Assembly (NCBI GenBank): GCA_019750255.1
Contig: JAIEOU010000004.1
Location: forward strand, 1 to 61,115
Origin: Patescibacteria group bacterium
GTDB lineage: Bacteria; Patescibacteriota; Minisyncoccia; Phycocordibacterales; UBA918
Length of the DNA: 61,115 bases
Direction: 5' to 3'
Part shown: piece after piece, positions 776 to 61,115 of the stretch
Layout of the letters: every line of letters begins with the position of its first letter
Position numbering within the stretch: position 1 is the first letter of the stretch
Made by a program: the position numbers and the translations under genes
Notes under the pieces: model-generated
What the model was told of the DNA's origin: nothing
The model's database searches: none
The model's input: the letters and a program-made list of their open reading frames with translations, nothing else

Positions 776-952
776 GCAGTTACTAACTCGCTACGCTCGT
801 AAGTACTACTGGACGCGGCTCGTGCTTACTCGCGCAATGGCGCGCTCGTAACAACACTCCGCCGGTTCGAATCCTCACGCATAGTGCGCAGGCACTATGC
901 TTATAGTGTCCACGAACAAAAAAGCACCCGGATGGGTGCAATTTTGTACTCG

Positions 953-1025
953 TGGACCCTAGAGGATTCGAACCCCCCGCCTCCTCAGTGCAAATGAGGC
1001 GCTCTACCAAATGAGCTAAGGGCCC
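953..1025 (-). tRNA. tRNA-Ala (anticodon TGC)
   Basis: The reverse complement folds as a 73-nt cloverleaf. Acceptor is GGGCCCT/AGGGTCC with the G3:U70 alanine identity pair. Anticodon loop is TTTGCAC and T-loop is TTCGAAT. The T-stem needs two G:U pairs. CCA is not encoded. Confidence 0.85.
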
Positions 1026-2515: not shown

Positions 2516-2588
2516 GGGCCCTTAGCTCATCCGGTAGAGCGCGTCCATGGCATGGACGAGGCGAGCGGTTCAAGTCCGCTAGGGTCCA
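2516..2588 (+). tRNA. tRNA-Ala (anticodon GGC)
   Basis: Clean 73-nt cloverleaf. Acceptor GGGCCCT/AGGGTCC with G3:U70. Anticodon stem CGTCC/GGACG with loop ATGGCAT. T-arm AGCGG-TTCAAGT-CCGCT. CCA is not encoded. Confidence 0.92.
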
Positions 2589-2613
2589 CGAGTATATTTT
2601 ACGAAGCAACTAC

Positions 2614-4304: not shown

Positions 4305-4376
4305 AGTAAGTGACTAATGTCACTTACGGGGCTCGGTGGAAGGCGTAAACGATGTGGCTCGCCACGAGTGCGCCGG

Positions 4377-4441
4377 GGTCGAGAGTACTTACTAGATTTT
4401 GAGCCGAAGGCGAAAAAATATAGTTAGTAACTCGTGACCAC
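4377..4441. repeat. right arm of the 64-bp inverted repeat (inverted copy of 594-656)
   Basis: TTAGTAACTCGTGACCAC (4424-4441) is the exact reverse complement of 594-611. GGTCGAGAGTACTTA (4377-4391) mirrors 642-656. The interior is about 70-75% similar by eye. Confidence 0.7.
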
Positions 4442-10109: not shown

Positions 10110-10874
10110 ATGTCTAGCTTCGTAGCAACTGCACACGCGGCGGAAGGTATTTCCGTCAAACTCTCACCGTATATCGTTGGGGATTTTTTTGGTATACCAA
10201 TCACTGCCACTCTCATTACCACCTGGCTCACCATGGCTGTTGTCATAGCCTTGGTATTTGTGGCGACCCGTCGCCTTGCCCTCATTCCCGGAAAATCACA
10301 GAGCGTGGCCGAGCTCATGGTCGGTGGGGTCTACGACTATATGACCGAAGTACTCGAAAGCAAGAATCTTGCTCGTAAGTACTTCCCGGTCATAATGACC
10401 TTGTTCATATTCATACTTGCCCTCAACTGGGTTGGACTACTACCAGGCGTTACCGCTTTTGGCACTTACCATGATGGCCACCTCATTCCGTGGCTCTACC
10501 CAGCCGGCACCGATCTTAATATCACGCTCGCCTTTGCTATCGTTGCCTTTCTGACCATCGAAATTGCCGGCGTGGTCACCCTTGGCCTCCTAAAATATGG
10601 CGGTAAGTTCTTTAACTTCCATTCACCACTCGGTTTTGTGATTGGCCTCATTGAACTGATCTCTGAAATTGCTCGCCTTATTTCCTTCTCGTTCCGTCTT
10701 TTTGGAAACATTTTTGCCGGAAAGACGCTCCTGGTGGTCGTTATGTTTTTTGTACCATACGTCCTACCAGTACCCCTCTTAGCGTTTGAGGTGTTTGTAG
10801 GATTCATTCAGGCCTTCATATTTTCAGTCTTGACACTATTCTTCATCAAGCTCGCAGCTGCAGAACCGCATTAG
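10110..10874 (+). CDS. atpB: F0F1 ATP synthase subunit a
   Basis: Polytopic, with FSFRLFGNIFAG (essential Arg motif) and operon context. Confidence 0.92.
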   Translation: MSSFVATAHAAEGISVKLSPYIVGDFFGIPITATLITTWLTMAVVIALVFVATRRLALIPGKSQSVAELMVGGVYDYMTEVLESKNLARKYFPVIMTLFIFILALNWVGLLPGVTAFGTYHDGHLIPWLYPAGTDLNITLAFAIVAFLTIEIAGVVTLGLLKYGGKFFNFHSPLGFVIGLIELISEIARLISFSFRLFGNIFAGKTLLVVVMFFVPYVLPVPLLAFEVFVGFIQAFIFSVLTLFFIKLAAAEPH

Positions 10875-10978: not shown

Positions 10979-11278
<300 letters not shown>

Positions 11279-11382
11279 TTAAGGAGAAATAAGGAGTAGC
11301 AAAGCTACGACTATATTTTCCTTAGTCCGGCACCTCATTACTTTTGAGCATCACAGCGATAAAAGTAATGGCGGTGACCGGC
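11279..11382. repeat. copy 1 of a ~100-nt hairpin-containing interspersed element (inverted relative to copies 2 and 3)
   Basis: TTAAGGAGAAATAAGGAG...CATTACTTTTGAGCATCACAGCGATAAAAGTAATGGCGGTGACCGG. Begins directly after the atpE stop. Aligns with the reverse complement of 12292-12390 and of 35269-35372. Confidence 0.8.
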
Positions 11383-11433
11383 ACACGAATTCGCACGATT
11401 ACAACCACCCATTACTCACTTCACCCAACCTGC

Positions 11434-11880
11434 ATGGATCAAATTATTGAAGCCTTCGGCATCAACTGGAAGCTCATCGTCGTACAGTTGGTCAACTTCG
11501 GCATACTGCTCGCCGCTCTTTCGTACTTCCTCTACAAGCCCGTCATGCGGATGCTTGAAGAGCGTGGTCAGAAAATCGCGCAGGGTATGAAAGACGCCGA
11601 GGAGGCAGCTGCGGCCAAAGCGACTGCTGAGACTGAAAAGCAAACAGTCGTTGCTGCGGCCCACGGTGAAGCCGCTCTGATTGCCGAGCGTGCCCGGGGC
11701 CATGCTCTGGTGGTAGGGGAGGAAGTGGTAAAGGAAGCGCAGGCGAAAGCCGCAGCCATCGTGGCTGATGCCGAAGCCCGTGCTCTTGAGGAAAAGCGAA
11801 AGGCAGAGAAGGAAAGCGAAGGAGAAATTACCAAATTGGCTATCCTAGCCACCGAAAAGCTTCTGCGTGAGCAGGCGTAA
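11434..11880 (+). CDS. atpF: F0F1 ATP synthase subunit b
   Basis: N-terminal TM helix (LIVVQLVNFGILLAALSYFLYKPV) followed by a long Ala/Glu/Lys coiled coil. The ATG at 11434 avoids the repeat element. Confidence 0.8.
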   Translation: MDQIIEAFGINWKLIVVQLVNFGILLAALSYFLYKPVMRMLEERGQKIAQGMKDAEEAAAAKATAETEKQTVVAAAHGEAALIAERARGHALVVGEEVVKEAQAKAAAIVADAEARALEEKRKAEKESEGEITKLAILATEKLLREQA

Positions 11881-11892
11881 TCGCCACCACTT

Positions 11893-12276
11893 ATGAAAGA
11901 TCGCTACATCACTGCTATCCTGTCTCTCTTGCGTGAACATCACGACGCAGTTTCGGTGATCGCTGGTGTCCGTGACGTGCTTACAAAGCGCAATCACGAG
12001 CGACTCTTTCCCAGTATCATGCGTGGCGTCCTGCGCCGACTCGAAGATAGTGTGAGTGGTGCCGAAGCAACTGTGGTGGTGGCAAGCGAAGCCGAGCTTG
12101 CCCGTAACAAAGAGGTTATCGCTAAGCTCCTTACGAGCCTTGAAGCAAAAGACGAACCCCGTGTTGTTATCGACGACTCCCTCATCGGTGGCATTATCGT
12201 GAGCAACAATTACCAGCGCATCGACACGTCGTACAAGCGCGCCCTTGCGTCACTGTATGAGCGTGTGACCCAGTAG
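11893..12276 (+). CDS. atpH: F0F1 ATP synthase subunit delta (short form)
   Basis: Operon position between b and alpha. C-terminal DDSLIGGIIV...IDTSYKRAL resembles the OSCP/delta C-terminus. Only 127 aa. Confidence 0.7.
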   Translation: MKDRYITAILSLLREHHDAVSVIAGVRDVLTKRNHERLFPSIMRGVLRRLEDSVSGAEATVVVASEAELARNKEVIAKLLTSLEAKDEPRVVIDDSLIGGIIVSNNYQRIDTSYKRALASLYERVTQ

Positions 12277-12291
12277 ATCTTATTAACATTT

Positions 12292-12390
12292 ACCGTTCGC
12301 CGCCGTTACTTTTTTCGCTCTGATGCTCAAAAGTAACGAGGCGCCGGTATAAGGAAAATATAGTCGGCTACGCCTCCTTATTTCTCCTTA
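12292..12390. repeat. copy 2 of the ~100-nt hairpin-containing interspersed element
   Basis: ACCGTTCGCCGCCGTTACTTTTTTCGCTCTGATGCTCAAAAGTAACGAGGCGCCGG...CCTCCTTATTTCTCCTTA. Lies 16 nt after the atpH stop and ends 14 nt before the atpA ATG. Confidence 0.8.
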
Positions 12391-12404
12391 TTATTTCCAA
12401 TCAT

Positions 12405-13970
12405 ATGAGTACCGTTATCATCGACAAGATCAAGAAAGAAATTGCTGCCCTCGCCACCGAAGCCCTTCCGGAAGAAATCGGAGTGGTTACGGCCGTGGGT
12501 GACGGTATTGCCGAAATCGACGGTCTGCCTAAAGCGGAAATGATGGAAATGGTGGTGTTTGAAACTGAAGCTGGTAAATCACTGACTGATACGCTCGGAA
12601 GTGAGTCGGCACTGCTGGGTCTCGTTCTTAACCTCGAGGAAGACACCGTAAAGGTGGTGGTGCTTGGTGAATCACGCCGCATCAAAGAGGGTATGCGCGT
12701 GCATCGCACGAAGAAGTTGCTTTCGATTCCGGTAGGACCAAACATTGTGGGTCGCGTGGTCTCGCCCCTCGGTGCACCAATCGACGGCAAGGGCGCCATC
12801 AAGGCTGAGGCCAACATGCCGATTGAGCGTGTAGCCTACGGCGTGATGGAGCGTTCAGCCGTGAACGAACCAATTCACACTGGTATCAAGGCTATCGACT
12901 CAATGATTCCGATTGGTCGTGGCCAGCGCGAGCTCATCATTGGTGACCGCGGTACCGGAAAGACTACGGTAGCAATCGATACCATCATCAACCAAAAGTA
13001 CGAACCAAAAGAGAAGCGCCCACTCTGTATATATGTCGCAATTGGACAAAAGCGATCAAAAACCGCGAGCTTAATGGCCAAGCTGCAAGAAGCTGGAGCG
13101 ATGGAATACACCACCATCGTTGCCACCTCTGCTTCTGAAGCCTCACCAATGCTGTTCTTAGCACCATTTGCTGGTGCCGCCATTGGTGAATTCTTTATGG
13201 CGCAAGGCAAGGACGTCCTCGTTGTATTTGATGACCTCTCAAAGCACGCGAACGCCTACCGCCAGATGTCACTCCTCCTCCGTCGCCCACCAGGACGCGA
13301 AGCCTACCCGGGTGATATTTTCTACCTCCACTCACGCCTCCTTGAGCGTTCAGCCAAGCTCTCAAAAGAACTCGGCGGTGGTTCGATTACCGCGCTTCCT
13401 ATCATCGAAACTCAGGAAGGTGACGTATCGGCCTACATTCCAACGAACGTTATCTCGATTACCGATGGTCAAATCTTCCTCGAAGGCGATCTCTTCAACA
13501 AAGGTATCCGCCCAGCCCTTAACGTTGGTATTTCTGTATCACGCGTAGGGTCAAGTGCGCAGACCAAGGCCATGAAGAAAGTGGCCGGCAAGATTCGTCT
13601 TGAGCTCGCGCAGTTCCGTGAACTCGAAGCTTTCGTACAGTTTGCTTCAGATCTTGATGATGACACAAAGCAGCGTATCGAAAGTGGCCGCAAGTACGTC
13701 GAGCTCCTCAAGCAGCCACAGAACAATCCAATGCCGTTTTACCTCCAGGTTATTTCTCTCTACGCAGCCAACAACGGTATCTACGACAAAGCACCGGTAA
13801 CTAAAGTGCGAGAAATGGAAGCGGCTTGGCTAGAATTCGTACAGCGCGAAAATAAGGCGCTCGTTACCCTGATCGAGGAGAAGCGTGAACTCAGTGACGA
13901 AACCATCGCGACCCTCACTGAACTCATGAATACCTTCAAGTCGGCACATCCAACCTACTACACCGCTTAA
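12405..13970 (+). CDS. atpA: F0F1 ATP synthase subunit alpha
   Basis: GDRGTGKT Walker A and a full-length alpha signature. Confidence 0.97.
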   Translation: MSTVIIDKIKKEIAALATEALPEEIGVVTAVGDGIAEIDGLPKAEMMEMVVFETEAGKSLTDTLGSESALLGLVLNLEEDTVKVVVLGESRRIKEGMRVHRTKKLLSIPVGPNIVGRVVSPLGAPIDGKGAIKAEANMPIERVAYGVMERSAVNEPIHTGIKAIDSMIPIGRGQRELIIGDRGTGKTTVAIDTIINQKYEPKEKRPLCIYVAIGQKRSKTASLMAKLQEAGAMEYTTIVATSASEASPMLFLAPFAGAAIGEFFMAQGKDVLVVFDDLSKHANAYRQMSLLLRRPPGREAYPGDIFYLHSRLLERSAKLSKELGGGSITALPIIETQEGDVSAYIPTNVISITDGQIFLEGDLFNKGIRPALNVGISVSRVGSSAQTKAMKKVAGKIRLELAQFRELEAFVQFASDLDDDTKQRIESGRKYVELLKQPQNNPMPFYLQVISLYAANNGIYDKAPVTKVREMEAAWLEFVQRENKALVTLIEEKRELSDETIATLTELMNTFKSAHPTYYTA

Positions 13971-13982
13971 ATATATTCTTTT

Positions 13983-14885
13983 GTGGCTCTCAAGCAAATC
14001 AAGAACAAAATAATTTCTACCAAGAAAACTGGCAAGGTCACCAAGGCCATGGAGTCGGTTTCGGCGGTTAAAATGCGCAAGAGTCAGGAACGCGCGTTTG
14101 CGAGTCGTCCGTACGTGCTTGGTGCCGTTACCATCCTGGAACGCCTTACCGCTTCTTTGGGTAGCATCACGCATCCACTTACCACGGCTCGCCCTGATGG
14201 GGCCGTCCTCGCTATCATTGTGACCAGCGACAAGGGATTGGCCGGAAGCGTAAACAGTGCGGTACTTAAGAAAGCGGAGCATCTTTTCAAGGAGCACGCT
14301 ACCGTGGATGTTGTCGCCTTTGGCCGCAAGGCGGTTGAATTCTCGCGTCGCGAGAAGAAGCAGCTCATCGCTGAGTTCGTAAACGTAAACGATGGTGTTA
14401 CGTTGGCCGATGTAGAGGCGAGCGCGGCTATGGTAATTAATGCATTTACGGAAGGTGGCTACAGTAAGGTGGTAGTTATCTACCAGAACTTCGTTTCAAC
14501 GTTCGAGCAGGCACCAACCGTGCGCCAAGTACTACCGCTCATAGCGGGCGAAATTAGCCAGATTGCCAAAGACATCGCGCCCCGAGTTGGGAAGTACAGT
14601 ACCGCCACTGTAGCTGAAGTAAAGGCGCGCGAGTACACCATCGAACCATCCGGTGCGGAGGTACTTGATATTCTCCTTCCTCAGCTTGTGCAGGTAATTC
14701 TCTACCACGCGCTCCTTGAAAGCAAAGCAAGTGAGCACAGTGCGCGTATGGTAGCAATGAAGAACGCGACCGATAAGAGTAAGGAAGTAGTGAAGGCCCT
14801 CACGATTAAGTTCAACAAACAGCGTCAGGCAGCCATTACGGCTGAGGTGAGTGAAATCACCGCCGGAGTAGAGGCGATGAAATAG
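13983..14885 (+). CDS. atpG: F0F1 ATP synthase subunit gamma
   Basis: Conserved gamma N-terminus (LKQIKNKI.S.K.T.K.TKAME.V) and C-terminus (NK.RQA.IT.E..EI..G). GTG start. Confidence 0.9.
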   Translation: MALKQIKNKIISTKKTGKVTKAMESVSAVKMRKSQERAFASRPYVLGAVTILERLTASLGSITHPLTTARPDGAVLAIIVTSDKGLAGSVNSAVLKKAEHLFKEHATVDVVAFGRKAVEFSRREKKQLIAEFVNVNDGVTLADVEASAAMVINAFTEGGYSKVVVIYQNFVSTFEQAPTVRQVLPLIAGEISQIAKDIAPRVGKYSTATVAEVKAREYTIEPSGAEVLDILLPQLVQVILYHALLESKASEHSARMVAMKNATDKSKEVVKALTIKFNKQRQAAITAEVSEITAGVEAMK

Positions 14886-14887
14886 AT

Positions 14888-15208
14888 ATGAAAAATTTTG
14901 TCTTAAACATCATTTCTCCACTCGTCATTTGGTACGCGTTCTATAGCGGAGCCGTAGAAACCAGCTTGCAGGCCGGTAACATACCTTTAGACTTTCCTGG
15001 TCTTCTGCTAGCACTAAAGATTATTGAGTGGAGCTTTGTCGTGATTGCAGTGAGTAACGCCTTGCCTCTCTTATTCGAACACTTTTTTAAAGATAGACCT
15101 CAGATAATGCTTTACTATCGTAAATTTCAGACAGTCACCGGTATATTGCTTTTGATAGCAGTTGTTTGTGGTTTTCTGTTTCTTGGTCACCTTGGCTTAT
15201 CGAAGTAG
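14888..15208 (+). CDS. small 3-TM membrane protein inserted between atpG and atpD
   Basis: The ATG lies 2 nt after the atpG stop. Three hydrophobic helices. Visibly more AT-rich than the flanking atp genes. Confidence 0.45.
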   Translation: MKNFVLNIISPLVIWYAFYSGAVETSLQAGNIPLDFPGLLLALKIIEWSFVVIAVSNALPLLFEHFFKDRPQIMLYYRKFQTVTGILLLIAVVCGFLFLGHLGLSK

Positions 15209-15275
15209 TACTTAGTAGCGAGTACCTTACGGGCTTTCGCTACTCAGTGGTACTGAGTCTTTATTAAATTACTAG

Positions 15276-16667
<1,392 letters not shown>

Positions 16668-16805
16668 CATCATCTGCTTTGTTGCTCTTCGTAAAATAGT
16701 TCTCATCGTACAGCAAGTACGCCTCAACCTATCTTGCTTGAGTGCCTCGCATCTAATGTCAATTTAACTCACAATTTGAAAAACACACCCCCCACTACTT
16801 AATTT

Positions 16806-17048
16806 ATGAAAACCTTTCAACTCACCATCACTCGTGTCGACGGCCCACTGTTTGTGGGTGAGGCCTTGAGCGTGCAGGTGCCGGGCATCTCGGGCGACAT
16901 GACCATCCTCGCGCACCACACCGCTCTTATTTCACCCTTGCGCACTGGAGCGGTGAAGGTGACCGAGGCTGATGGTTCGACTCGTGAGTTCACGGTTGCT
17001 ACCGGGACTCTAGAAGTAAGTGACAACCAGGCCACTATCCTGCTCTAG
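16806..17048 (+). CDS. atpC: F0F1 ATP synthase subunit epsilon (N-terminal beta-sandwich only)
   Basis: Operon position. The sequence VP...GDMTILAHHTALISPL..G is typical of the epsilon N-terminal domain. At 80 aa there is no C-terminal helical hairpin. Confidence 0.8.
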   Translation: MKTFQLTITRVDGPLFVGEALSVQVPGISGDMTILAHHTALISPLRTGAVKVTEADGSTREFTVATGTLEVSDNQATILL

Positions 17049-17067
17049 AACCCACATAATACATGAC

Positions 17068-17096
17068 AAAATCCCGCGCACCTGGCGTGGGATTTT
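17068..17096. terminator. bidirectional terminator after the atp operon
   Basis: AAAATCCCGCG / CGTGGGATTTT stem with one G:U pair, between convergent genes. Confidence 0.7.
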
Positions 17097-17123
17097 CGTA
17101 TCTATACAATCTATTCAGTACTC

Positions 17124-34169: not shown

Positions 34170-34236
34170 TGTCGCACTCATAGATTAAGAAGAACCCTTT
34201 ATTATTCAGTTGCGCGAAGGTATACACCACAACACC

Positions 34237-35262
34237 ATGATTTCGTTTAAACCAAAGAACATCACCAAAGCGCTCCTCGCGGTGCTCCCAGAGCGTGCGC
34301 GCGATGTCCTCGAGAAGCGCTATGGCCTTCGCACTGACGGAGAGGTCTTCACCCTTGAAGCCATCGGCCAGTCATACGGAATTACCCGTGAACGCGTACG
34401 CCAGATTGAAAATTACGGCATTGCTGCGATTCAGAAGTCTGAAGAGTACAAGAAGCATTTTGACCTCTTTGTTGAGATGCAAAAACTCATTGACCAGCTT
34501 GGAGGCGGAGTGATTGCTGAACACGTGCTCCTTGAAGAGCTCTCAACAGATCCCGTCGTACGCAACCACCTCTACTTCCTCCTCGTGGTCGGCGACTTCT
34601 TCTACAAAGGCAAAGAAAACCCCCACTACACTCATCGATGGTTTACCGAAAAGAAAACCGCCGATACCGTGGAAAAGGCTCTTCGTAACGTGCACCAGTC
34701 TCTCAGTCGCGACGAACTCGTGTCAGAACAAGAAATTATTCAACGATTCCGTTCTGAACTAGCCGGCAGCGCAGATCGTCACGACGAACATGTACTCAAG
34801 CGATGGCTCTCAATTTCTAAGCAAATTGGAAAAAACCCACTTGGGGACTGGGGACCAGCAGACAGTCCAAATATACGCGTCAAGGGTATCCGCGACTACG
34901 CCTACCTAACGGTAAAGCGCCATGGTTCACCCATGCACTTTCGCGAGGTAGCTGAAGCTATCGCCGACCTCTTTGCGCACAAAGCTCACATTGCTACCAC
35001 TCATAACGAACTCATTAAAGATGGTCGGTTTGTGCTCGTCGGCCGTGGCCTTTACGCCCTCACTGAATGGGGTTACACCGCCGGGGTGGTAAAAGAAGTC
35101 CTTCGCGATATCCTCAAACACGAAGGTCCGCTGTCTCGAGAAGAACTGATCGACAAGGTAAAAAAGGAGCGCTACGTAAAGGACAATACGATTATCGTAA
35201 ATCTCCAAGACACCAACCTTTTCAAGCGGCTGAGTAACGGGACGTTTACCCTAGCTGAATAG
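34237..35262 (+). CDS. sigma-70 region-4-like HTH protein with C-terminal HARE-HTH domain
   Basis: LPERARDVLEKRYGL......TLEAIGQSYGITRERVRQIEN is region-4-like. The C-terminal MHFREVAEAI......GRFVLVGRGLYALTEWGY is HARE-HTH-like. Confidence 0.65.
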   Translation: MISFKPKNITKALLAVLPERARDVLEKRYGLRTDGEVFTLEAIGQSYGITRERVRQIENYGIAAIQKSEEYKKHFDLFVEMQKLIDQLGGGVIAEHVLLEELSTDPVVRNHLYFLLVVGDFFYKGKENPHYTHRWFTEKKTADTVEKALRNVHQSLSRDELVSEQEIIQRFRSELAGSADRHDEHVLKRWLSISKQIGKNPLGDWGPADSPNIRVKGIRDYAYLTVKRHGSPMHFREVAEAIADLFAHKAHIATTHNELIKDGRFVLVGRGLYALTEWGYTAGVVKEVLRDILKHEGPLSREELIDKVKKERYVKDNTIIVNLQDTNLFKRLSNGTFTLAE

Positions 35263-35268
35263 GCACCT

Positions 35269-35372
35269 TACCGCTCGCCGCCATTACTTTTTTCGCGTTG
35301 ATGCTCAAAAGTAATGAGGCCGCCGGTATAAGCAAAACATAGTCAGCGCAAGCGCATCCTTGTTTCTGCTTA
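35269..35372. repeat. copy 3 of the ~100-nt hairpin-containing interspersed element
   Basis: ACCGCTCGCCGCCATTACTTTTTTCGCGTTGATGCTCAAAAGTAATGAGGCCGCCGGTATAAGC...CCTTGTTTCTGCTTA. Lies 7 nt after the stop at 35262, in the same orientation as copy 2. Confidence 0.8.
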
Positions 35373-35388
35373 ACCAACAGCAATCAGC

Positions 35389-35412
35389 AAAAAGCCCCTT
35401 ATGGGGCTTTTT
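35389..35412 (+). terminator. rho-independent terminator
   Basis: AAAAAGCCCC-TTAT-GGGGCTTTTT. Confidence 0.8.
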
Positions 35413-35443
35413 GTATAGTACAATACAGTTACTTTTCCTTCTT

Positions 35444-36784
35444 ATGGGCGACTTTTTTAAGATGGTATTTGCAATTGTCGTTATTCCACTCATGATTTTG
35501 ATCACGGGTGGTGTCTTATATTTCCTTCTCACTCGACTCGATGTAAATCCCGAACCAATACTTTCCATTGTGGTATTACTTTCTCCGGTCTGGCTGCCCT
35601 ACGTGCTCTTTCATCTCATGTTTGATCAGTGGAGAGAGTATATTCGACTTAAGTGGAAGATAGCTAACGGTCGTACAACACTGCGTATAAAACTTCCTCA
35701 GGAAGTATTTAAGTCTCCCGAAGCCATGGAGGCAGTCATTTCTCAAATTCACAACACGAGTGGTTCGGATAACCTATGGCAAGCTTACATTGATGGACGT
35801 AACCCGCTTATATTCAGCTTTGAACTTGTGTCACACGGCGGGGAAGTGCGCTTCTATATCAACGTCCCAACCAAGAAGACAAAAAACGGGGTAGAGGCGG
35901 CGCTGTATGCCCACTATCCTGGGGTTGAAGTAGTAGAAGAACCTCTCGATTATGCAGCGGAAATATCATGGAACCCAGACAAGTACGAAATGATGGCGTT
36001 TCATCTCGGGAAAAAAGAGGATGAGATATTTCCAATCAAAACCTATATTGATTTCGGCATGGACCGACTGCCGAAAGAGGAGTTTAAATTTGAACCGATG
36101 GCAACAATGATTGAGCAGATTGGACGAATAAAACCCCACGAACGCATCTGGATACAAATCCTTGCCAAGCCCCATGGAAAAAAGAACTTTATGACGGGCG
36201 ACCTGCAAGAAAGTGGTACCTGGGATAAAAAAATTGAAGCGCACATAGAAAAGCTACTCGGACGTAACAAAGATAAACAAGGCGCGGCAGATACTGAGTT
36301 CACCCCCAGACTCACGAAAGGGGAACAAGAAAATGTTTCGGCCATGGAGCGCAACGCTACCAAATATCCGTACGAAGTCGCTATTCGCATGCTTTATATA
36401 ACGGAGAAGGGTAAGTTTAATGGGGATCTTATCGGGCCAACGCTAAAGACCTTTTCTCAATACGACATGCTCAAACGCAATGCTATAGGCCCCCGCTGGC
36501 GTACTGACTTCGACAATAACTGGCTCGAAGACTACTCCGGAGCCAAAAAACTGCAAGGGAAGAAAGACGAGCTTCATGATTATAAACTGCGTGAATATAG
36601 CGCGCGCGCCAAATCGAAGGGTGGCAGCAAGTCGGACGATATGAAAGTATTCTCCGCCGAAGAACTCGCGACCATCTATCACCTTCCCGGTAGCGTCATT
36701 GTAAGTCCCGCCCTGCCGCGCATTATGTCGGCACGCAAAGAAGCCCCAAGTAATCTACCAACCGGTTTACCGACCACTCTGTAA
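35444..36784 (+). CDS. membrane-anchored hypothetical protein
   Basis: The ATG at 35444 lies downstream of the terminator. Two N-terminal TM helices, then a large soluble domain. No family recognised. Confidence 0.5.
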   Translation: MGDFFKMVFAIVVIPLMILITGGVLYFLLTRLDVNPEPILSIVVLLSPVWLPYVLFHLMFDQWREYIRLKWKIANGRTTLRIKLPQEVFKSPEAMEAVISQIHNTSGSDNLWQAYIDGRNPLIFSFELVSHGGEVRFYINVPTKKTKNGVEAALYAHYPGVEVVEEPLDYAAEISWNPDKYEMMAFHLGKKEDEIFPIKTYIDFGMDRLPKEEFKFEPMATMIEQIGRIKPHERIWIQILAKPHGKKNFMTGDLQESGTWDKKIEAHIEKLLGRNKDKQGAADTEFTPRLTKGEQENVSAMERNATKYPYEVAIRMLYITEKGKFNGDLIGPTLKTFSQYDMLKRNAIGPRWRTDFDNNWLEDYSGAKKLQGKKDELHDYKLREYSARAKSKGGSKSDDMKVFSAEELATIYHLPGSVIVSPALPRIMSARKEAPSNLPTGLPTTL

Positions 36785-55411: not shown

Positions 55412-56482
55412 ATGAATACATTTACTGTAGGTACAATATTAAATAAAATAAAGACTACCGTGGTCACAACAACACCAGTGTACAAAAGCCTGGTGCTGCA
55501 ATACCCCTCCCGACTAAACGCGATGGCTCTTGATCCGAGTCAAATTGATGTCAAAGGAAATGGTATTTATTCTCCAGGTGAAGTGATATTTTCTATAGCA
55601 ATATATAAGACAGTTACAATTCGTCTACGTATTGATAGTCAGGTTGTAATCACTGGTAATAGCCCACGCCATCAGCTCATTACACACGCCGTGCTTCTAA
55701 TGAGAGGAGTGCTTCAAACCGAACAAGGTTTTGATATTGATGTAGAGTCTGAAGATTTGCGTCATTGTGGTCTTGGCTCAAGTAGCGGACTAATTTCTGC
55801 CGTAGCTACGGCAATCAACGAAATGTACGGTAATCCAATACCTCGACTGGAACTTATAGCGTACCTCGCTCAGAATCATGGTGAGGAAATGGATGATAGT
55901 AGAAATGATTTACAGCATGTGCAGTGTATTGGAGGAGCGGCCGCTGCTGGCTTGGTGGAGTCTGGCATGACTGTATTGGCCGGTGAATCAACTCCAATTG
56001 GAACAATGTCGATAGATGATTCGTATACTGTATTAATTGGAATACCCAATGATTTTATTGCCCCTGATTCAAAAGAACTAATGCGCTTGGAAATGCTTAA
56101 TATGCATAAGTTTATTGCAACCGGAAATCAGTATCGTGATAAAATTGGCTACAGGGTGACTCATGAAATGTTGCCGCAGATGAAAAAAGGGAACTTACAA
56201 GAGGCAGCAAGGTTAATCTTTGATTACCGTTTCAATTACGGAAGTATTGTTAACTGTTCGTTTGTATACCCGAAAATAATAGATATTGCGGCAGACATAC
56301 GATCACTCTTTGAAAAAGACATCGTTGACGTGTTGGCCTTGTCGAGTGTCGGACCTGCCTTTTTTGCAATCACAAAGGAACCCGATATATGTGAATCAGT
56401 ATTTCTCAATAACAACCTGGGTGTCCGAAGAACTACAATTAACAATACTGGATACAGTGTTACTGGTAGCGAATCAATATGA
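55412..56482 (+). CDS. GHMP-kinase-superfamily protein, beta-ribofuranosylaminobenzene-5'-phosphate (beta-RFAP) synthase-like
   Basis: N-terminal YPSRLNAMALDPS resembles the TPSR(I/L)H.GLIDL start of beta-RFAP synthases. CGLGSSSGLISA is GHMP motif II. LSSVGPAFFAIT is GHMP motif III. AT-rich. Confidence 0.6.
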   Translation: MNTFTVGTILNKIKTTVVTTTPVYKSLVLQYPSRLNAMALDPSQIDVKGNGIYSPGEVIFSIAIYKTVTIRLRIDSQVVITGNSPRHQLITHAVLLMRGVLQTEQGFDIDVESEDLRHCGLGSSSGLISAVATAINEMYGNPIPRLELIAYLAQNHGEEMDDSRNDLQHVQCIGGAAAAGLVESGMTVLAGESTPIGTMSIDDSYTVLIGIPNDFIAPDSKELMRLEMLNMHKFIATGNQYRDKIGYRVTHEMLPQMKKGNLQEAARLIFDYRFNYGSIVNCSFVYPKIIDIAADIRSLFEKDIVDVLALSSVGPAFFAITKEPDICESVFLNNNLGVRRTTINNTGYSVTGSESI

Positions 56483-57132
56483 GTTTTATACAAACATTTC
56501 AATTTTGGAATAGCAGAAAAAACGTTCAGTATTTTAAAGACAAGCCAGCCGATCCGCGAATTGAGAAACGACTTATTGAGTTTCGGCAAAATAGCGCTAC
56601 TCATGTAGAAGCCCTTGATCTGGGCTGTGGTGGCGGGAGACATACTGAACTTTTGGTTACGTTAGGATTCTCAACGCACGCAATTGATCTTAACCCACAG
56701 ATGCTACGGTGCACTAAAGATAGAGTAGGTGGAAATAACATAATAACTCTTAAAAGGGCTTCAATTATAAAGCTCCCCTTTCGTAATAATTTTTTTGATG
56801 TCGTTGTCACAACCGGCGTTTTACATCAAGCCAAAAACATTACTGAGTACCAGTTGGCAATATGTGAGTTATCTCGCGTAGTGAAGCAAGGTGGATTAGT
56901 TTGTCTGAACATCTTTACATCCGCCAAACTTGATCCAACGTACAGAAAGAATAAGGATGTGTTTTCATTTAAAACTAAAGAGGGTTTGGATATGACTCTT
57001 TTAAATAAAGAGTTATTCTACAATATGATGAGTTGGTATGGTCTTACACTAGAGCAGGAGCTATCCGAAGACTTTGTGCAGGAGAATACTGGAGAGAGAA
57101 GTGTGTTGAGATGTAATTTTATTAAATTGTAA
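56479..57132 (+). CDS. class I SAM-dependent methyltransferase
   Basis: ALDLGCGGGRH (motif I), a post-I acidic residue (AIDLN) and VVTTGVLHQ. The start overlaps the upstream stop (ATGA). Confidence 0.8.
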   Translation: MSFIQTFQFWNSRKNVQYFKDKPADPRIEKRLIEFRQNSATHVEALDLGCGGGRHTELLVTLGFSTHAIDLNPQMLRCTKDRVGGNNIITLKRASIIKLPFRNNFFDVVVTTGVLHQAKNITEYQLAICELSRVVKQGGLVCLNIFTSAKLDPTYRKNKDVFSFKTKEGLDMTLLNKELFYNMMSWYGLTLEQELSEDFVQENTGERSVLRCNFIKL

Positions 57133-57142
57133 TTCAATCATT

Positions 57143-57700
57143 ATGAAAATTTCGTATGTAACAGGTAATGTAGGAAAGTTCGAAAATGCTCAAAAGTTCT
57201 TTACTCAATTTAATATTGAGGTTGAACAGTTACCAATTAAAGTTGAGGAGATTCAGAGTGGCAACTCACTTGAAATTGCTGTGGCAAAGGCCGAAGCTGC
57301 GTATGCACAAGTCAAAAAACCCTTGTTTGTAAATGACGCCAGTTGGATTATCCCAGCATTGGGTGGCTTTCCCGGTCCATTTATGAAATTTGTGAATCAG
57401 TGGTTCAAGCCACAAGATTTCATCAATCTCATGATTGATAAATTAGATCGTAGAATCATTCTTAAGGATAGTATTGTTTACATTGATGAGTCGGGACATA
57501 ATGTCTTTACCCATGAACACGTAGGGATAATATTAAATGAGGTCGCTGCCTTTGAGTATAAGAATCCAACCGATGTGGTAGTTTCACTGTCTGCCAATCA
57601 TTCATCAGTAGCAGAAGAAAAGTCAAAAGGTAGTTTTTTCATAGAAAATGAAGATGCTGTCTGGAAAGAGTTTGTTACATGGCTACAAAATAACAGGTAA
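57143..57700 (+). CDS. Ham1/ITPase-family non-canonical NTP pyrophosphatase-like protein
   Basis: N-terminal YVTGNVGKFENA (Ham1 motif TGNxGKxxE), then DASW.IPALGGFPGPF (compare D.GL....L.G.PG.Y). About 185 aa. Confidence 0.65.
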   Translation: MKISYVTGNVGKFENAQKFFTQFNIEVEQLPIKVEEIQSGNSLEIAVAKAEAAYAQVKKPLFVNDASWIIPALGGFPGPFMKFVNQWFKPQDFINLMIDKLDRRIILKDSIVYIDESGHNVFTHEHVGIILNEVAAFEYKNPTDVVVSLSANHSSVAEEKSKGSFFIENEDAVWKEFVTWLQNNR

Positions 57701-57781
57701 GCGCGTTGATTGACGCTATAATTATATATTGTATATTATTGATAGAGCTAGCGAGATCAAATATTGAGAAAGGAATGTCCA

Positions 57782-58879
57782 ATGAGCACGGTGAAAACAG
57801 CTCCTGCCTATGCTATCTACAAGATGGGTAAGTTGCTGGATCAAAGTGTCCAGGAGCTCGACCCGCTCGGTTTTGATAAGTACTTTGTTAGTGGCGAGTT
57901 TTCTCAGTGTGCCACAGCACGTTCTGCCGAAGCCATTCTGGTTTTTGTCGAAAAAAATGTAAATCCGATAAGCTTCGACACAATAGCCAGGATGAACGAA
58001 GTGTCTGCCATGGCCGCTGCTCGTGATCTCAATATGGTTGCATCTGTTGCGACTAGATTTGGGGTACCGATACACACGATGCCGCAGCTTGAGTCATTTT
58101 TACTGCTCCTGTCTGAAAAGACTCGAGAAGTTCCTACTGACACAGTGTTCGGTTACGGATCGCGGAATCCGGAAGGGAAGCGTCGTCGTTCGTTTACTGG
58201 AACCCCCGAAGAAGATTTGTTCATCGACTCTTTTACTGAGGGAATGAACAGTTTGATTGTTACACTGGCCGCCCTTGAAACCGTGCAAACAATGAGCCTC
58301 GCAAATGGGCGGTACTCACAGCTTGTGAGTGAGGCTGGGTCTGGTTTCAGTCAAATGTCCGAGTCGATCCTGCGTGTGCGCAAGCACATTACGCCGGATT
58401 TCTTCACCAACAAGCTCCGGCCATTTTTTGATCCCAAAACCATCCGCGGTAAGACATACTTTGCTGCGGGGGGAGCGCAGATGCCAGTGACTGTCGTTGA
58501 CTTGATTTTGTGGGGGGTCGAGGACAGTGATCGAATGTATCTTGGGTATCGTAGCGAACATCTGAGGTACCTACCTCGCTTCTATCACGCAAAGGTTGAG
58601 TCCATTTTTCAAAGTCCTTCAATTCTACACGCTGTCGGTGTTGAATTGAGTGGGGGTTTGCCAGCTAATTCACAAAATGCGAAGGCTGCCCTGGAGGCTT
58701 TGAGAGATTTTGCTGATCAGATAATCAGTTTTCGGGCTCCGCATCTTGGGGTTGCGAAAGCAAATATGAAAATCAGATCAGCTGGTTCGGTAGGTAGTGG
58801 GGGCTATGACCTTTTCATCCTTCAGTACCTCATCGATAGGACAAAGCGATTCAAAGCGAGTATGACGCCACCTAAGTAG
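57782..58879 (+). CDS. indoleamine-2,3-dioxygenase/PrnB-superfamily heme enzyme-like protein
   Basis: Collinear matches to recalled IDO motifs. [20 protein letters not shown] matches [29 protein letters not shown] matches [19 protein letters not shown] matches SLRSYHLQIV (proximal His). [13 protein letters not shown] matches GTGGTDLMNFLK. The ATG at 57782 is preceded by GAGAAAGGAA. Confidence 0.6.
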   Translation: [365 protein letters not shown]

Positions 58880-59108: not shown

Positions 59109-59116
59109 GCGTGGGT

Positions 59117-59689
59117 ATGGTGAATAAACACGACAAACACGAACACGATGATGATATAGAGTTCACCAACGAAATTCCTGACACGATTGAATCAGAACTC
59201 GAAGATGAAGACATTGAAGAGTTAAGCGCAGCGAAGGTTAAGAAACTTCGCGACGCACTGAAAGAAGCTGAAGCAGCCAAACGCGACGCGCTTGAAGCCC
59301 TCGCGCGCGAGCGTGCCGATTTCCTTAATGCCCGCAAGCGCCTTGAGGAGCAAAAGGTATCCGACATGGAACGAGTAACCGCACGGCATATAGAAGCCAT
59401 CCTGCCGCTCGCAGACAGCTTCGAGATGGCCATGCAGGACCCCAAGTGGCAAAGTGCCGATGAGGTATGGCGCAAGGGCGTAGAGGGCATTTATGCGCAA
59501 CTCACGACCATCCTTCGAGCTTACGGAGTAGAAGAAATCATGCCGCTCGGGCAGCAGTTTAACCCAGTCGAGCACGAAGCGCTGACCGACAGTGGCACCA
59601 ATGATATCGTTGCAGCCGTTCTCCAGAAAGGTTACCGCAAGGGTGCGACGATTATTCGACCAGCCAAGGTGGCAGTAGGGACGAGCTAG
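59117..59689 (+). CDS. grpE: nucleotide exchange factor GrpE
   Basis: Acidic N-terminus, coiled coil, LLP.ADSFE.A, then G......L...L...GV..I...G..F.P..HEA and KGY......I.RPA.V.V. A GTG at 59111 is an alternative start. Confidence 0.85.
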   Translation: MVNKHDKHEHDDDIEFTNEIPDTIESELEDEDIEELSAAKVKKLRDALKEAEAAKRDALEALARERADFLNARKRLEEQKVSDMERVTARHIEAILPLADSFEMAMQDPKWQSADEVWRKGVEGIYAQLTTILRAYGVEEIMPLGQQFNPVEHEALTDSGTNDIVAAVLQKGYRKGATIIRPAKVAVGTS

Positions 59690-59763: not shown

Positions 59764-61115
59764 ATGGCAAAAATTCTTGGAATCGACCTTGGAACCACTA
59801 ACTCGGCTGTCGCCATCATCGAAGTGGGCGAGCCAGTTATTATTGAAAATGCTGAAGGCAACCGCACCACACCATCAGTGGTGGCTATTTCAAAGACCGG
59901 CGAACGGCTCGTAGGGCAGATTGCCAAGCGTCAGGCCGTAACGAATCCAACCAATACCATCTACGGCATCAAGCGCTTCATGGGGCATACTTTTGATGAA
60001 GAGCATGTGCAGAAAGACAAGGCAATTGTTCCCTATGAAGTAAAAGCCGGGAAGGACGGCGGGGCAGTGGTTATGATGGCTGACAAGGAATACCGTCCAG
60101 AAGAAGTCTCCGCAATGATTCTCTCGAAGCTCAAGGCCGATGCCGAAGCGAAGACGGGTGAAAAGATCACCGAAGCCGTTATCACGGTACCGGCATACTT
60201 TAATGACGCCCAGCGTAAAGCCACCCAAGACGCCGGAAAGATTGCCGGCCTCGAGGTGCGCCGCATCATCAACGAGCCAACGGCCGCAGCCCTCGCTTAC
60301 GGATTTAACAAAAAGAAGGATGAAAAGATCGTTGTCTATGACTTTGGTGGCGGTACCTTTGACGTCACCGTCCTCGAGGTTGGTGACGACGTGGTCGAAG
60401 TACGCTCTACCGACGGCGACGCACACATGGGTGGTCGTGATATTGACCAGGAAATCGTCCGCTACCTCATCGAGGAATTCAAGAAGAGTAGTGGCGTAGA
60501 CCTTGGAAAGGACAAGCTCGCACTCCAGCGACTTGATGAAACCGCTGAAAAAGCCAAGCTCGAGCTCTCCTCAACCATGGAGACCGGCATCAACATTCCG
60601 TTCATCTCGCAAGGTACCGACGGTCCTCTCCATATGGACATGAAGCTTACCCGTGCCAAGCTCGAGGATTTGTCTCGCCAGTACATTGAGAAATCAATTA
60701 TGATTACCAAGCGTGCCATGGAAGCGTCGGGATTACAGATGAGTGAAATAGATGAAATTATTCTCGTTGGTGGTCAGACCCGTATGCCAGCGATTGTGAA
60801 TGAGGTAAAGACCCTCTTCGGCAAAGAACCAAATAAATCAATTAACCCCGATGAGGTAGTGGCTCTTGGTGCCGCTATCCAGGCCGGCATCTTCCAGGGA
60901 GATGTTAAGGACATTACACTTGTCGACGTTATTCCTCTATCGCTCTCAATCGAAACAATGGGCGGAGTTGCCACAAAAATTATTGAGAAAAATACTCATA
61001 TCCCGACGCGGAAGTCACAGGTCTTCTCAACCGCTGCCGACAACCAAACCCAGACAGAAATTCACATTGCCCAGGGTGAGCGCCCAATGGCTAATGACAA
61101 CAAATCCCTCGGCCG
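59764..61115 (+). CDS. dnaK: molecular chaperone DnaK (5' partial; runs off the window)
   Basis: [17 protein letters not shown]..., DLGGGTFDV-equivalent ([15 protein letters not shown]) and VGGQTRMP. There is no stop before position 61115. Confidence 0.97.

Follow-up and report, generated by a model that had tools for sequence, protein, structure and literature searches.

A probable lineage-restricted family of ~100-nt two-hairpin repeats in an uncultured Patescibacteria genome and its ATP synthase operon

The DNA analysed here, hereafter the window (61,115 nt of contig JAIEOU010000004.1, from an uncultured Patescibacteria host), carried three copies of a short hairpin-bearing repeat: two in the ATP synthase (atp) operon and one behind a gene with Sigma70_r4 and HARE-HTH domains. 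These repeats very likely constitute a lineage-restricted family of ~100-nt non-coding, non-autonomous interspersed DNA elements, moved or copied in trans, in a host belonging to the candidate phyla radiation (CPR; Paceibacteria/Minisyncoccia-like), and the element is probably mobile now or was so recently. An earlier note on this DNA had proposed a dispersed or mobile repeat acting at the DNA level, of the miniature inverted-repeat transposable element (MITE), repetitive extragenic palindromic (REP) or bacterial interspersed mosaic element (BIME) type. Three kinds of evidence supported that proposal: the presence of multiple copies with unlike flanks, empty sites in relatives, and independent insertions in other hosts.

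The three related segments of ~100 nt after stop codons that the note had described were recovered by reading the sequence, by alignment and by a covariance-model scan. The three sites were the same; the limits of two copies were refined (11279-11383 and 12291-12390), as were the distance from the stop codon (0-15 nt) and the pairwise identity (78-84%, for an element length of 100-105 nt). A covariance model built from the three copies and run over the window with filters off gave 117-118 bits at the copies and 18 bits at the next-best match, so that exactly three copies were present within the 61 kb. In a repeat scan they were the top-ranking dispersed repeat of the window, and their invariant 16-mer core (TGATGCTCAAAAGTAA) occurred 3 times versus 0.6 expected by chance. 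Chance similarity and ordinary spacer sequence were rejected as explanations on these covariance-model scores, the copy number and the empty sites described below.

Alignment confirmed that copy 1 was inverted relative to copies 2 and 3, and Pfam matches confirmed the neighbours that had been named: atpE, atpH and the Sigma70_r4/HARE-HTH gene. The first base of copy 1 directly followed the atpE TAA (11276-11278) and its last base lay 50 nt before the atpF ATG (11434); copy 2 was located 14-15 nt past the atpH TAG (12274-12276) and 14 nt ahead of the atpA ATG (12405); copy 3 started 6 nt past the TAG (35260-35262) of the Sigma70_r4/HARE-HTH gene, ahead of the terminator of this gene. All known copies were intergenic and adjoined stop or start codons, a placement which fits an element that tolerates or prefers short AT-rich spacers by stop and start codons.

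RNA folding resolved each copy into two abutting hairpins, A (~59 nt) and B (41-45 nt). Hairpin A was composed of an outer stem (TACCG/CGGTA), a helix (CGCC/GGCG), a further stem (RTTACTTTT/AAAAGTAAY) and a conserved loop (TCGCnnTGATGCTC); the previously reported stem TTACTTTT/AAAAGTAA (here 9-10 bp) and conserved loop TCGC..TGATGCTC were both found again. In hairpin B, TAAGGAAAATATAG paired with CTCCTTATTTCTCCTTA, with a small variable tip stem between them. The tandem Shine-Dalgarno (SD)-like tract that had been noticed at one end was present, and was actually the 3' arm of hairpin B, which the earlier note had missed. The element ended in 5'-TRCCG and CTCCTYA-3'; the two ends (TRCCGTTCGCC... 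and ...TTTCTCCTYA) were not reverse complements, each paired inside its own hairpin, and no terminal inverted repeats (TIRs) were found. Folding with respect to shuffled sequence gave z values of -2.7 to -8.0 for RNA and about -5 to -7 for DNA, on both strands.

Two simple functions were excluded on this anatomy: a coding micro-open reading frame (ORF), since stop codons were present in all six reading frames of the element; and an intrinsic terminator, since no T-run followed either hairpin and the real terminator was located downstream of copy 3 (a terminator-like hairpin missed by a simple terminator scan). The longest-ORF TTG starts at 11344 (atpF) and 35360 (a 474-aa ORF) fell within element copies. 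Both are almost certainly false, as the conserved ATG codons at 11434 (atpF) and near 35445 (474-aa ORF) aligned with those of relatives, and the element is thus able to mislead gene callers. A chimeric six-frame "peptide" query for spurious ORFs across other copies gave no match.

Evidence that the element was inserted came from the loci of relatives, which were reached via AtpH homologues (atp operons) and via homologues of the HARE-HTH gene. The earlier note had suggested that the atp operons of close relatives be compared for empty sites, and such sites were found in L002, L003-L006, L173 and L175. In L002 and L003-L006 (AtpH 83-84% and AtpA 95-98% identical to those of the window) the atpH-atpA spacer measured 28-31 nt, and deleting TACCG...CTCCTTATT from the window recreated their uninterrupted site, AACATT^ATTTCC. 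The spacer of L003 was ...AAAAAACATT^ATTTCCCATCATATG and that of the window ...TTAACATT(TACCG...CTCCTTATT)ATTTCCAATCATATG; in this alignment copy 2 reads as a clean insertion of ~100 nt, with a junction ambiguity of at most 0-3 nt (ATT), a comparison limited by the divergence of the relatives. The atpH-atpA site of L173 and L175 was also empty. In most relatives examined, close ones included, this spacer measured 22-32 nt and fitted a precise empty site; across the clade, leaving aside element carriers and two unexamined cases, it was 9-32 nt long, versus 128-135 nt in element carriers. The element was likewise absent from 80 HARE-HTH loci of relatives (793 kb; protein identity up to 90%). In the 13 relatives whose HARE-HTH loci were examined, the stop-to-terminator distance was ~10-50 nt versus 127 nt in the window, and an intrinsic terminator was followed by the box TAGTACAAT.

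A scan of CPR atp loci (426 kb) gave no copy, which makes the distribution of the family patchy. An exact 21-mer of the conserved core was absent from GTDB species representatives and from JGI metagenome contigs, two shorter patterns gave nothing beyond chance seed matches in viral contigs, and blastn against plasmids and phages gave no match. No Rfam 15 family matched at gathering score over the whole window, nor at E<=1 over positions 11000-17100.

Other hosts carried the element in the same spacers at different positions. In L176, L177 and L178 (AtpH 84% identical) a full copy lay 2 nt behind the atpH stop; the more distant L174 (AtpH 58%; atpF and atpH together 63% identical at the nucleotide level) had one copy 5 nt behind the atpH stop and a second one located 9 nt ahead of the atpF ATG; and a contig from a plant metatranscriptome (X30) had a copy 98% identical to copy 2 located 1 nt before the atpF ATG, opposite in orientation to copy 1, in a host whose atpF was only about 81% identical to that of the window. 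These differing positions indicate at least two or three entries into the atpE-atpF spacer, and insertion into the atpH-atpA spacer at two or three different points. The copies of the window and of L174 were 75-90% identical whereas their atpF and atpH genes were 63% identical; identity between genomes (75-90%) thus matched identity within the genome (78-84%), while host genes ranged from 63 to 83%.

Metagenome runs pointed to additional copies. In four runs holding the genome, depth over the element in the copy 2 region was 50-120 versus 3-8 in the flanks, with 12-17 element-bearing contigs per run, 66-88% of which continued into unlike sequence; the copy 3 region showed the same depth and flank pattern. 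The copy number, an estimate because most of the extra copies were seen only in contig fragments, was roughly 10-15 units per genome-equivalent at a similarity of at least 80%, and it may mix co-occurring strains. Short-read assemblies broke at the element: L001 corresponded exactly to atpF-atpH, delimited by copies 1 and 2, and contig L007 ended inside copy 1.

Mosaic and tandem forms were also observed. L176:189-291 also belonged to the family (69.7 bits); it shared hairpin B, but the apical part of its hairpin A differed. Directly ahead of it lay L176:97-188, another hairpin element whose terminus, CTCGTTGTTTCTCCTCA, was identical. In several runs, loose ends were of this same "A2-B" type, together with joins of hairpin A alone. 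A contig of 128-136 nt in runs X1, X4 and X21 (soil, drinking water), with a matching 136-nt contig in X9 (wastewater), led from a 30-mer of hairpin B through the right end CTCCTCA and the left end GCCTGACGCC back to the same 30-mer, at a depth 1.3-7 times that of the flanks. Head-to-tail joins, in which CTCCTCA was fused to the left end GCAAGTCGCC or GCCTGACGCC, were thus present in L176:97-291 and in runs X1, X4, X21 and X9. The 136-nt contig is either a head-to-tail dimer sharing the 30-mer in hairpin B or a circular form, and both fit the contigs. A circular molecule of 106 nt was rejected as a necessary reading, because a dimer explains the contig equally well and L176 displays one directly; the junction contigs could nonetheless reflect a circular intermediate instead of tandem dimers.

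Both co-varying features on which the earlier note had relied, the closing pair (A-T vs. G-C) and the helix read as CACC/GGTG or CGCC/GGCG, were present, and the co-variation was real and grew with added copies, from 6 two-sided pairs in three copies to 15 in seven members. In the three window copies, 6 pairs were changed on both sides and 0 on one side only, 97% of cells were paired, none of 500 shuffles reached the observed values and slid controls gave zero. Six copies yielded more compensated pairs, for example 70/95 (U-A vs. C-G, three each) and 74/92 (G-C to U-A). A structural alignment of seven members, which included the variant L176:189-291 and was fitted to the model (a procedure that favours structure), had two-sided changes at 15 pairs (24 cells), with 0 of 500 shuffles reaching this value and slid controls of 0-2. 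In two further copies, pieced together in part from loose ends linked within single contigs, the outer stem TACCG/CGGTA was replaced by CTCAG/CTGAG and CAG..T/A..CTG.

The clean compensatory changes were all from Watson-Crick to Watson-Crick pairs and therefore discriminate neither RNA from DNA hairpins nor one strand from the other. One-sided changes were mostly A·C in the orientation of copy 2, that is, G·U on the TAAGGAG strand, although the tally of such wobble-compatible changes was small (about 6-7 vs. 1). All six full copies folded 6.8-15.2 kcal/mol better as RNA on the TAAGGAG strand; under DNA folding parameters both strands were equal and the asymmetry was gone. The better-folding RNA strand was antisense to the operon in 6 of the 7 copies with readable orientation (the X30 copy included), which argues, weakly, against selection on an mRNA fold.

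No ORF of the window had a transposase domain, and mobilisation must therefore be in trans: an enzyme encoded elsewhere would recognise the hairpins and copy or move the element. The likeliest candidate would be a single-strand-DNA, hairpin-specific transposase of the HUH/Y1 type, as in IS200/IS605 derivatives or in REP sequences with their REP-associated tyrosine transposases (RAYT). The lack of TIRs and of target-site duplications (TSDs), the hairpins at both ends, the conserved loop and termini and the head-to-tail forms all point to an enzyme of this type acting on folded single strands; no fixed-length TSD was common to the six fully read and the partly read copies. If the hairpins must remain recognisable, this would account for the compensatory substitutions and for the conservation of the loop. 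As the copies are located inside transcription units, their co-transcription with neighbouring genes is certain from position, and it is consistent with short contigs of RNA-labelled runs that spanned the element-atpA or element-atpF junction. Any effect on the stability or processing of atp mRNA would have arisen as a by-product or through later exaptation, rather than being the raison d'être of the family.

Several observations weigh against a mobile element moved in this way. Movement itself was not observed, as no run combined a filled with an empty allele at any one site; the mobilising enzyme is wholly inferred; and most of the extra copies were seen as contig fragments only. Since sampling of relatives covered atp and HARE-HTH neighbourhoods only, the atp "hot spot" partly reflects ascertainment. 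Selection is not the sole source of compensatory changes in palindromes, which templated (quasi-palindrome) correction can produce as well. The flanks of the readable copies had no common target motif: left flanks ended in GTG, ATT, CCT, TCT, ACC, GGT, ATA, CAC and TCA, and right flanks began with ATT, TTA, ACC, TCA, TTT, TTA and TAT, which counts against a typical IS200/IS605 mechanism. The hairpins, moreover, extended to the very termini of the element, so that guide or linker segments like those of IS608-type ends would have no place.

Three other explanations were considered. The first, a host-selected cis-acting RNA (an intercistronic or 3'-untranslated region (UTR) stabiliser, processing site or attenuator setting atp subunit output) whose spread is secondary, is unlikely. 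The location of all copies within transcription units near stop or start codons, the contigs from RNA runs bridging the element and atpA or atpF, and the co-variation in both hairpins would suit such an RNA, but copy 3 lies behind an unrelated gene, the element is used in both orientations, and the atpH-atpA spacer (9-32 nt) is element-free in most relatives, including those with 95-98% identical AtpA. The mRNA strand also folds 7-15 kcal/mol worse as RNA in 6 of the 7 orientation-readable copies, mismatches that are A·C in the mRNA sense being G·U on the antisense strand; and the conservation of loop and termini, with 90% identity at 63% gene identity, exceeds what a generic stabilising hairpin needs.

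The same explanation gains from the fact that the atpE-atpF and atpD-atpC spacers of the clade are normally long (150-230 nt and 120-176 nt, respectively) and hold another structured motif, here called "family 2": ~85 nt of the form ATCTGCTTTGTYG...stem...CTCAyyGTACAnnAGTAC..CTC...stem...CGCATCT, located in one or both of these spacers. Compensatory changes affected 21 of the 29 predicted pairs of family 2 (eight sequences), and it had no Rfam match. In the window it was present after atpD and missing after atpE, where copy 1 sits; in the three element-bearing lineages whose atpE-atpF spacer was read (the window, L174 and L176), this spacer contained units of the present element ("family 1") instead of family 2, which would fit a functional replacement. 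Family 2 thus keeps the regulatory idea alive, as a hypothesis of exaptation.

The earlier remark linking the SD-like tract of copy 2 to the atpA gene behind it, which lacks an obvious SD, was not borne out. Of 48 genes, only 4 had any SD-like motif upstream; SD sequences are thus scarcely used in this genome, the tract has no obvious translational meaning and an SD-less atpA leader is the norm. A functional SD or anti-SD tract was rejected for this reason. Element-free relatives had the same SD-less atpA leader.

REP/BIME sequences of E. coli have been reported as DNA sites for a nucleoid protein, gyrase or recombinase. That the present element is a domesticated DNA-level binding site of this kind, or an uptake signal of a naturally competent, scavenging lineage, is very unlikely: its loop and termini are strongly kept between diverged genomes and its structure is strand-symmetric under DNA parameters, but no data point to a binding protein, an uptake signal would be expected in greater number than the roughly 10-15 copies per genome, and in several relatives the sampled DNA (tens of kb each) was free of the element, which speaks against a core cellular role. 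Its extragenic location is shared with REP/BIME as described (PMC3116915, PMC3337134). Least credible of all is that the TAAGGAG strand encodes a small RNA gene, either antisense or stand-alone; this would account for the better RNA fold of the six full copies on that strand and for one-sided changes that are mostly wobble-compatible on that strand alone, but is contradicted by the smallness of the wobble tally, the loss of the asymmetry with DNA parameters, the lack of any promoter-like site associated with the copies and the lack of an Rfam match.

A bolder proposal joins the mobile repeat to the regulatory idea: an undescribed hairpin-recognising transposition system, without TIRs or TSDs, that moves horizontally between Patescibacteria lineages, homes to atp spacers, displaces and perhaps functionally replaces family 2, and has been exapted to set subunit stoichiometry. 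Taken as a whole this is unlikely; the basis offered for horizontal movement is that copies 90-98% identical are flanked by genes about 63-81% identical. If the family is indeed active or recently active, conserved across hosts and patchy, it would imply a working trans-acting mobilisation machinery in these symbionts, and DNA exchange among them. In practical terms, the element breaks short-read assemblies of the lineage and offers a ready-made strain marker, and its repeated landing in the atp operon beside family 2 turns the question of how CPR bacteria regulate ATP synthase stoichiometry into a concrete, testable one.

Coordinates of the element copies, their hairpins, the neighbouring genes and the family 2 sites are collected in Table 1.

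Table 1. Features of the window and sites of family 2. Positions are those of the window unless preceded by the name of a relative.
Feature	Position	Strand	Basis or remarks
atpB	10110-10874		Pfam
atpE	11015-11278		Pfam
Element copy 1	11279-11383	minus	Alignments; covariance-model scores 117 and 112.8 bits
Hairpin B, copy 1	11280-11324	minus	Plus strand reads TAAGGAGAAATAAGGAG...CTATATTTTCCTTA
Hairpin A, copy 1	11325-11383	minus	Outer stem, CACC/GGTG helix, ATTACTTTT/AAAAGTAAT stem, conserved loop
atpF	11434-11880		Pfam; true ATG at 11434
atpH	11893-12276		Pfam
Element copy 2, atpH-atpA spacer	12291-12390	plus	Covariance-model scores 117.6 and 113 bits
Hairpin A, copy 2	12291-12349	plus	RNA and DNA folding
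Hairpin B, copy 2	12350-12390	plus	The CCTCCTTATTTCTCCTTA tract before atpA forms the 3' arm
atpA	12405-13970		Pfam
atpG	13983-14885		Pfam
atpD	15291-16667		Pfam
Family 2	16672-16755	plus	
Family 2, L003	6631, 11575		
Family 2, L002	9393		
Family 2, L017	4969, 9918		
Family 2, L173	2354		
Family 2, L020	4874		
atpC	16806-17048		Pfam
Sigma70_r4/HARE-HTH gene	34210-35262		Pfam
Element copy 3, 3' UTR of Sigma70_r4/HARE-HTH gene	35269-35372	plus	Covariance-model score 118 bits
Hairpin A, copy 3	35269-35328	plus	Folding, alignment
Hairpin B, copy 3	35329-35372	plus	Two compensated pairs: G-C to C-G, U-A to C-G
Intrinsic-terminator-like hairpin AAAAGCCCC TTAT GGGGCTTTTTG	35389-35414	plus	Read from sequence; same position as terminators of relatives

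The host genome was compact, with nearly all genes on one strand, and was present in soil and drinking-water metagenomes; the closest species representatives were Patescibacteria metagenome-assembled genomes labelled Minisyncoccia, Paceibacterota and Kaiserbacteria (AtpA 74-80% identical). Extra small ORFs recurred between the atp genes of the clade: a 106-aa ORF without Pfam match between atpG and atpD in the window (14888-15208, plus strand); a NUDIX gene between atpA and atpG in L002, plus ORFs of 90 and 116 aa (11983-12390, 13298-13570, 15031-15381); and a 108-aa ORF between atpE and atpF in L175 (1578-1904). Behind the HARE-HTH terminator, a box (GTAGTACAATA, 35415-35445) with a -10-like TACAAT preceded the next gene (ATGGGYGA...) and was also kept in many relatives (L095-L106); it is likely the promoter of the downstream membrane protein gene.

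Elsewhere in the window, inverted repeats of ~65 nt (594-659 and 4374-4441, 84-87% complementary) bracketed a 3.7-kb segment containing an inverted tRNA-Ala pair (952-1025, minus strand; 2516-2589, plus strand) and genes for DUF1294, CsoR-type metal repressor, MauE-like and DUF305 proteins, which may be an invertible or mobile metal-resistance cassette. GC content fell to 0.38 at 56001-58000 versus about 0.50 elsewhere; this region, with methyltransferase, Ham1-like and PrnB-like genes, may be recently acquired DNA. An ORF matching PF10712 (NAD-GH) at 59890-60426 (minus strand), antisense to the sequence behind grpE (59111-59689), had no such product on record and looks more like the known antisense-of-dnaK artefact than like a gene.

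In their general build, REP/BIME of enterobacteria and the REP doublets of Pseudomonas known as REPINs (REP-RAYT systems; PMC3116915, PMC3337134) are alike to the element described here: they are short, non-coding, extragenic imperfect palindromes, co-transcribed after stop codons or between operon genes, in mosaic and clustered arrangements and without TIRs or TSDs. The element was found as extragenic imperfect palindromes within transcription units, in clusters and mosaics, and hairpin A alone, with two inverted arms of ~21 nt around a 15-nt spacer, is REPIN-like in geometry. The whole element, in contrast, adds a second, unrelated hairpin (B) and would thus be two unlike hairpins instead of two inverted copies of one REP; its copy number is in the tens, not hundreds, no RAYT gene was found in the 61-kb window, and its host is a CPR bacterium. 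It is also patchy among relatives, whereas inheritance is described as largely vertical for REPIN/RAYT systems.

A modular build is shared with other repeats. BOX elements of Streptococcus pneumoniae are modular boxA-boxB-boxC repeats; like them, the element has hairpin sub-units that recombine (here A1-B, A2-B, X-type and B-sharing variants), is intergenic and co-transcribed, and has no known encoded transposase. Module sizes, module order and host phylum differ, and no likeness in sequence would be expected. With the MITE-like derivatives of IS200/IS605 ("palindrome-associated transposable elements") the element shares a non-autonomous unit of ~100 nt with a hairpin towards each end, the lack of TIRs and of a target duplication, and a strong orientation bias (6 of 7 readable copies lay the same way relative to genes); unlike them, it has no conserved tetra- or pentanucleotide beside its left end, its hairpins are terminal and abutting instead of subterminal with guide segments, and the available DNA yielded no TnpA/TnpB partner.

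MITEs of the Correia/NEMIS (Neisseria) and ERIC/RUP types, ~100-150 nt long, located near genes and co-transcribed, can alter mRNA processing or stability and are useful strain markers. They have clear TIRs and duplications of TA or other targets, whereas the element has neither: it is short, non-coding and multi-copy with differing flanks, as MITEs are, and the TIRs and TSDs of the classical type were absent. In proteobacteria and firmicutes, small hairpin repeats scattered through the genome are a classic feature, and no description of such a repeat family in CPR bacteria, with their reduced genomes, was found in the literature searched. Given this, and the lack of any Rfam, plasmid or phage match, the element is a new family of a familiar, REP/BIME/BOX/MITE-like type.

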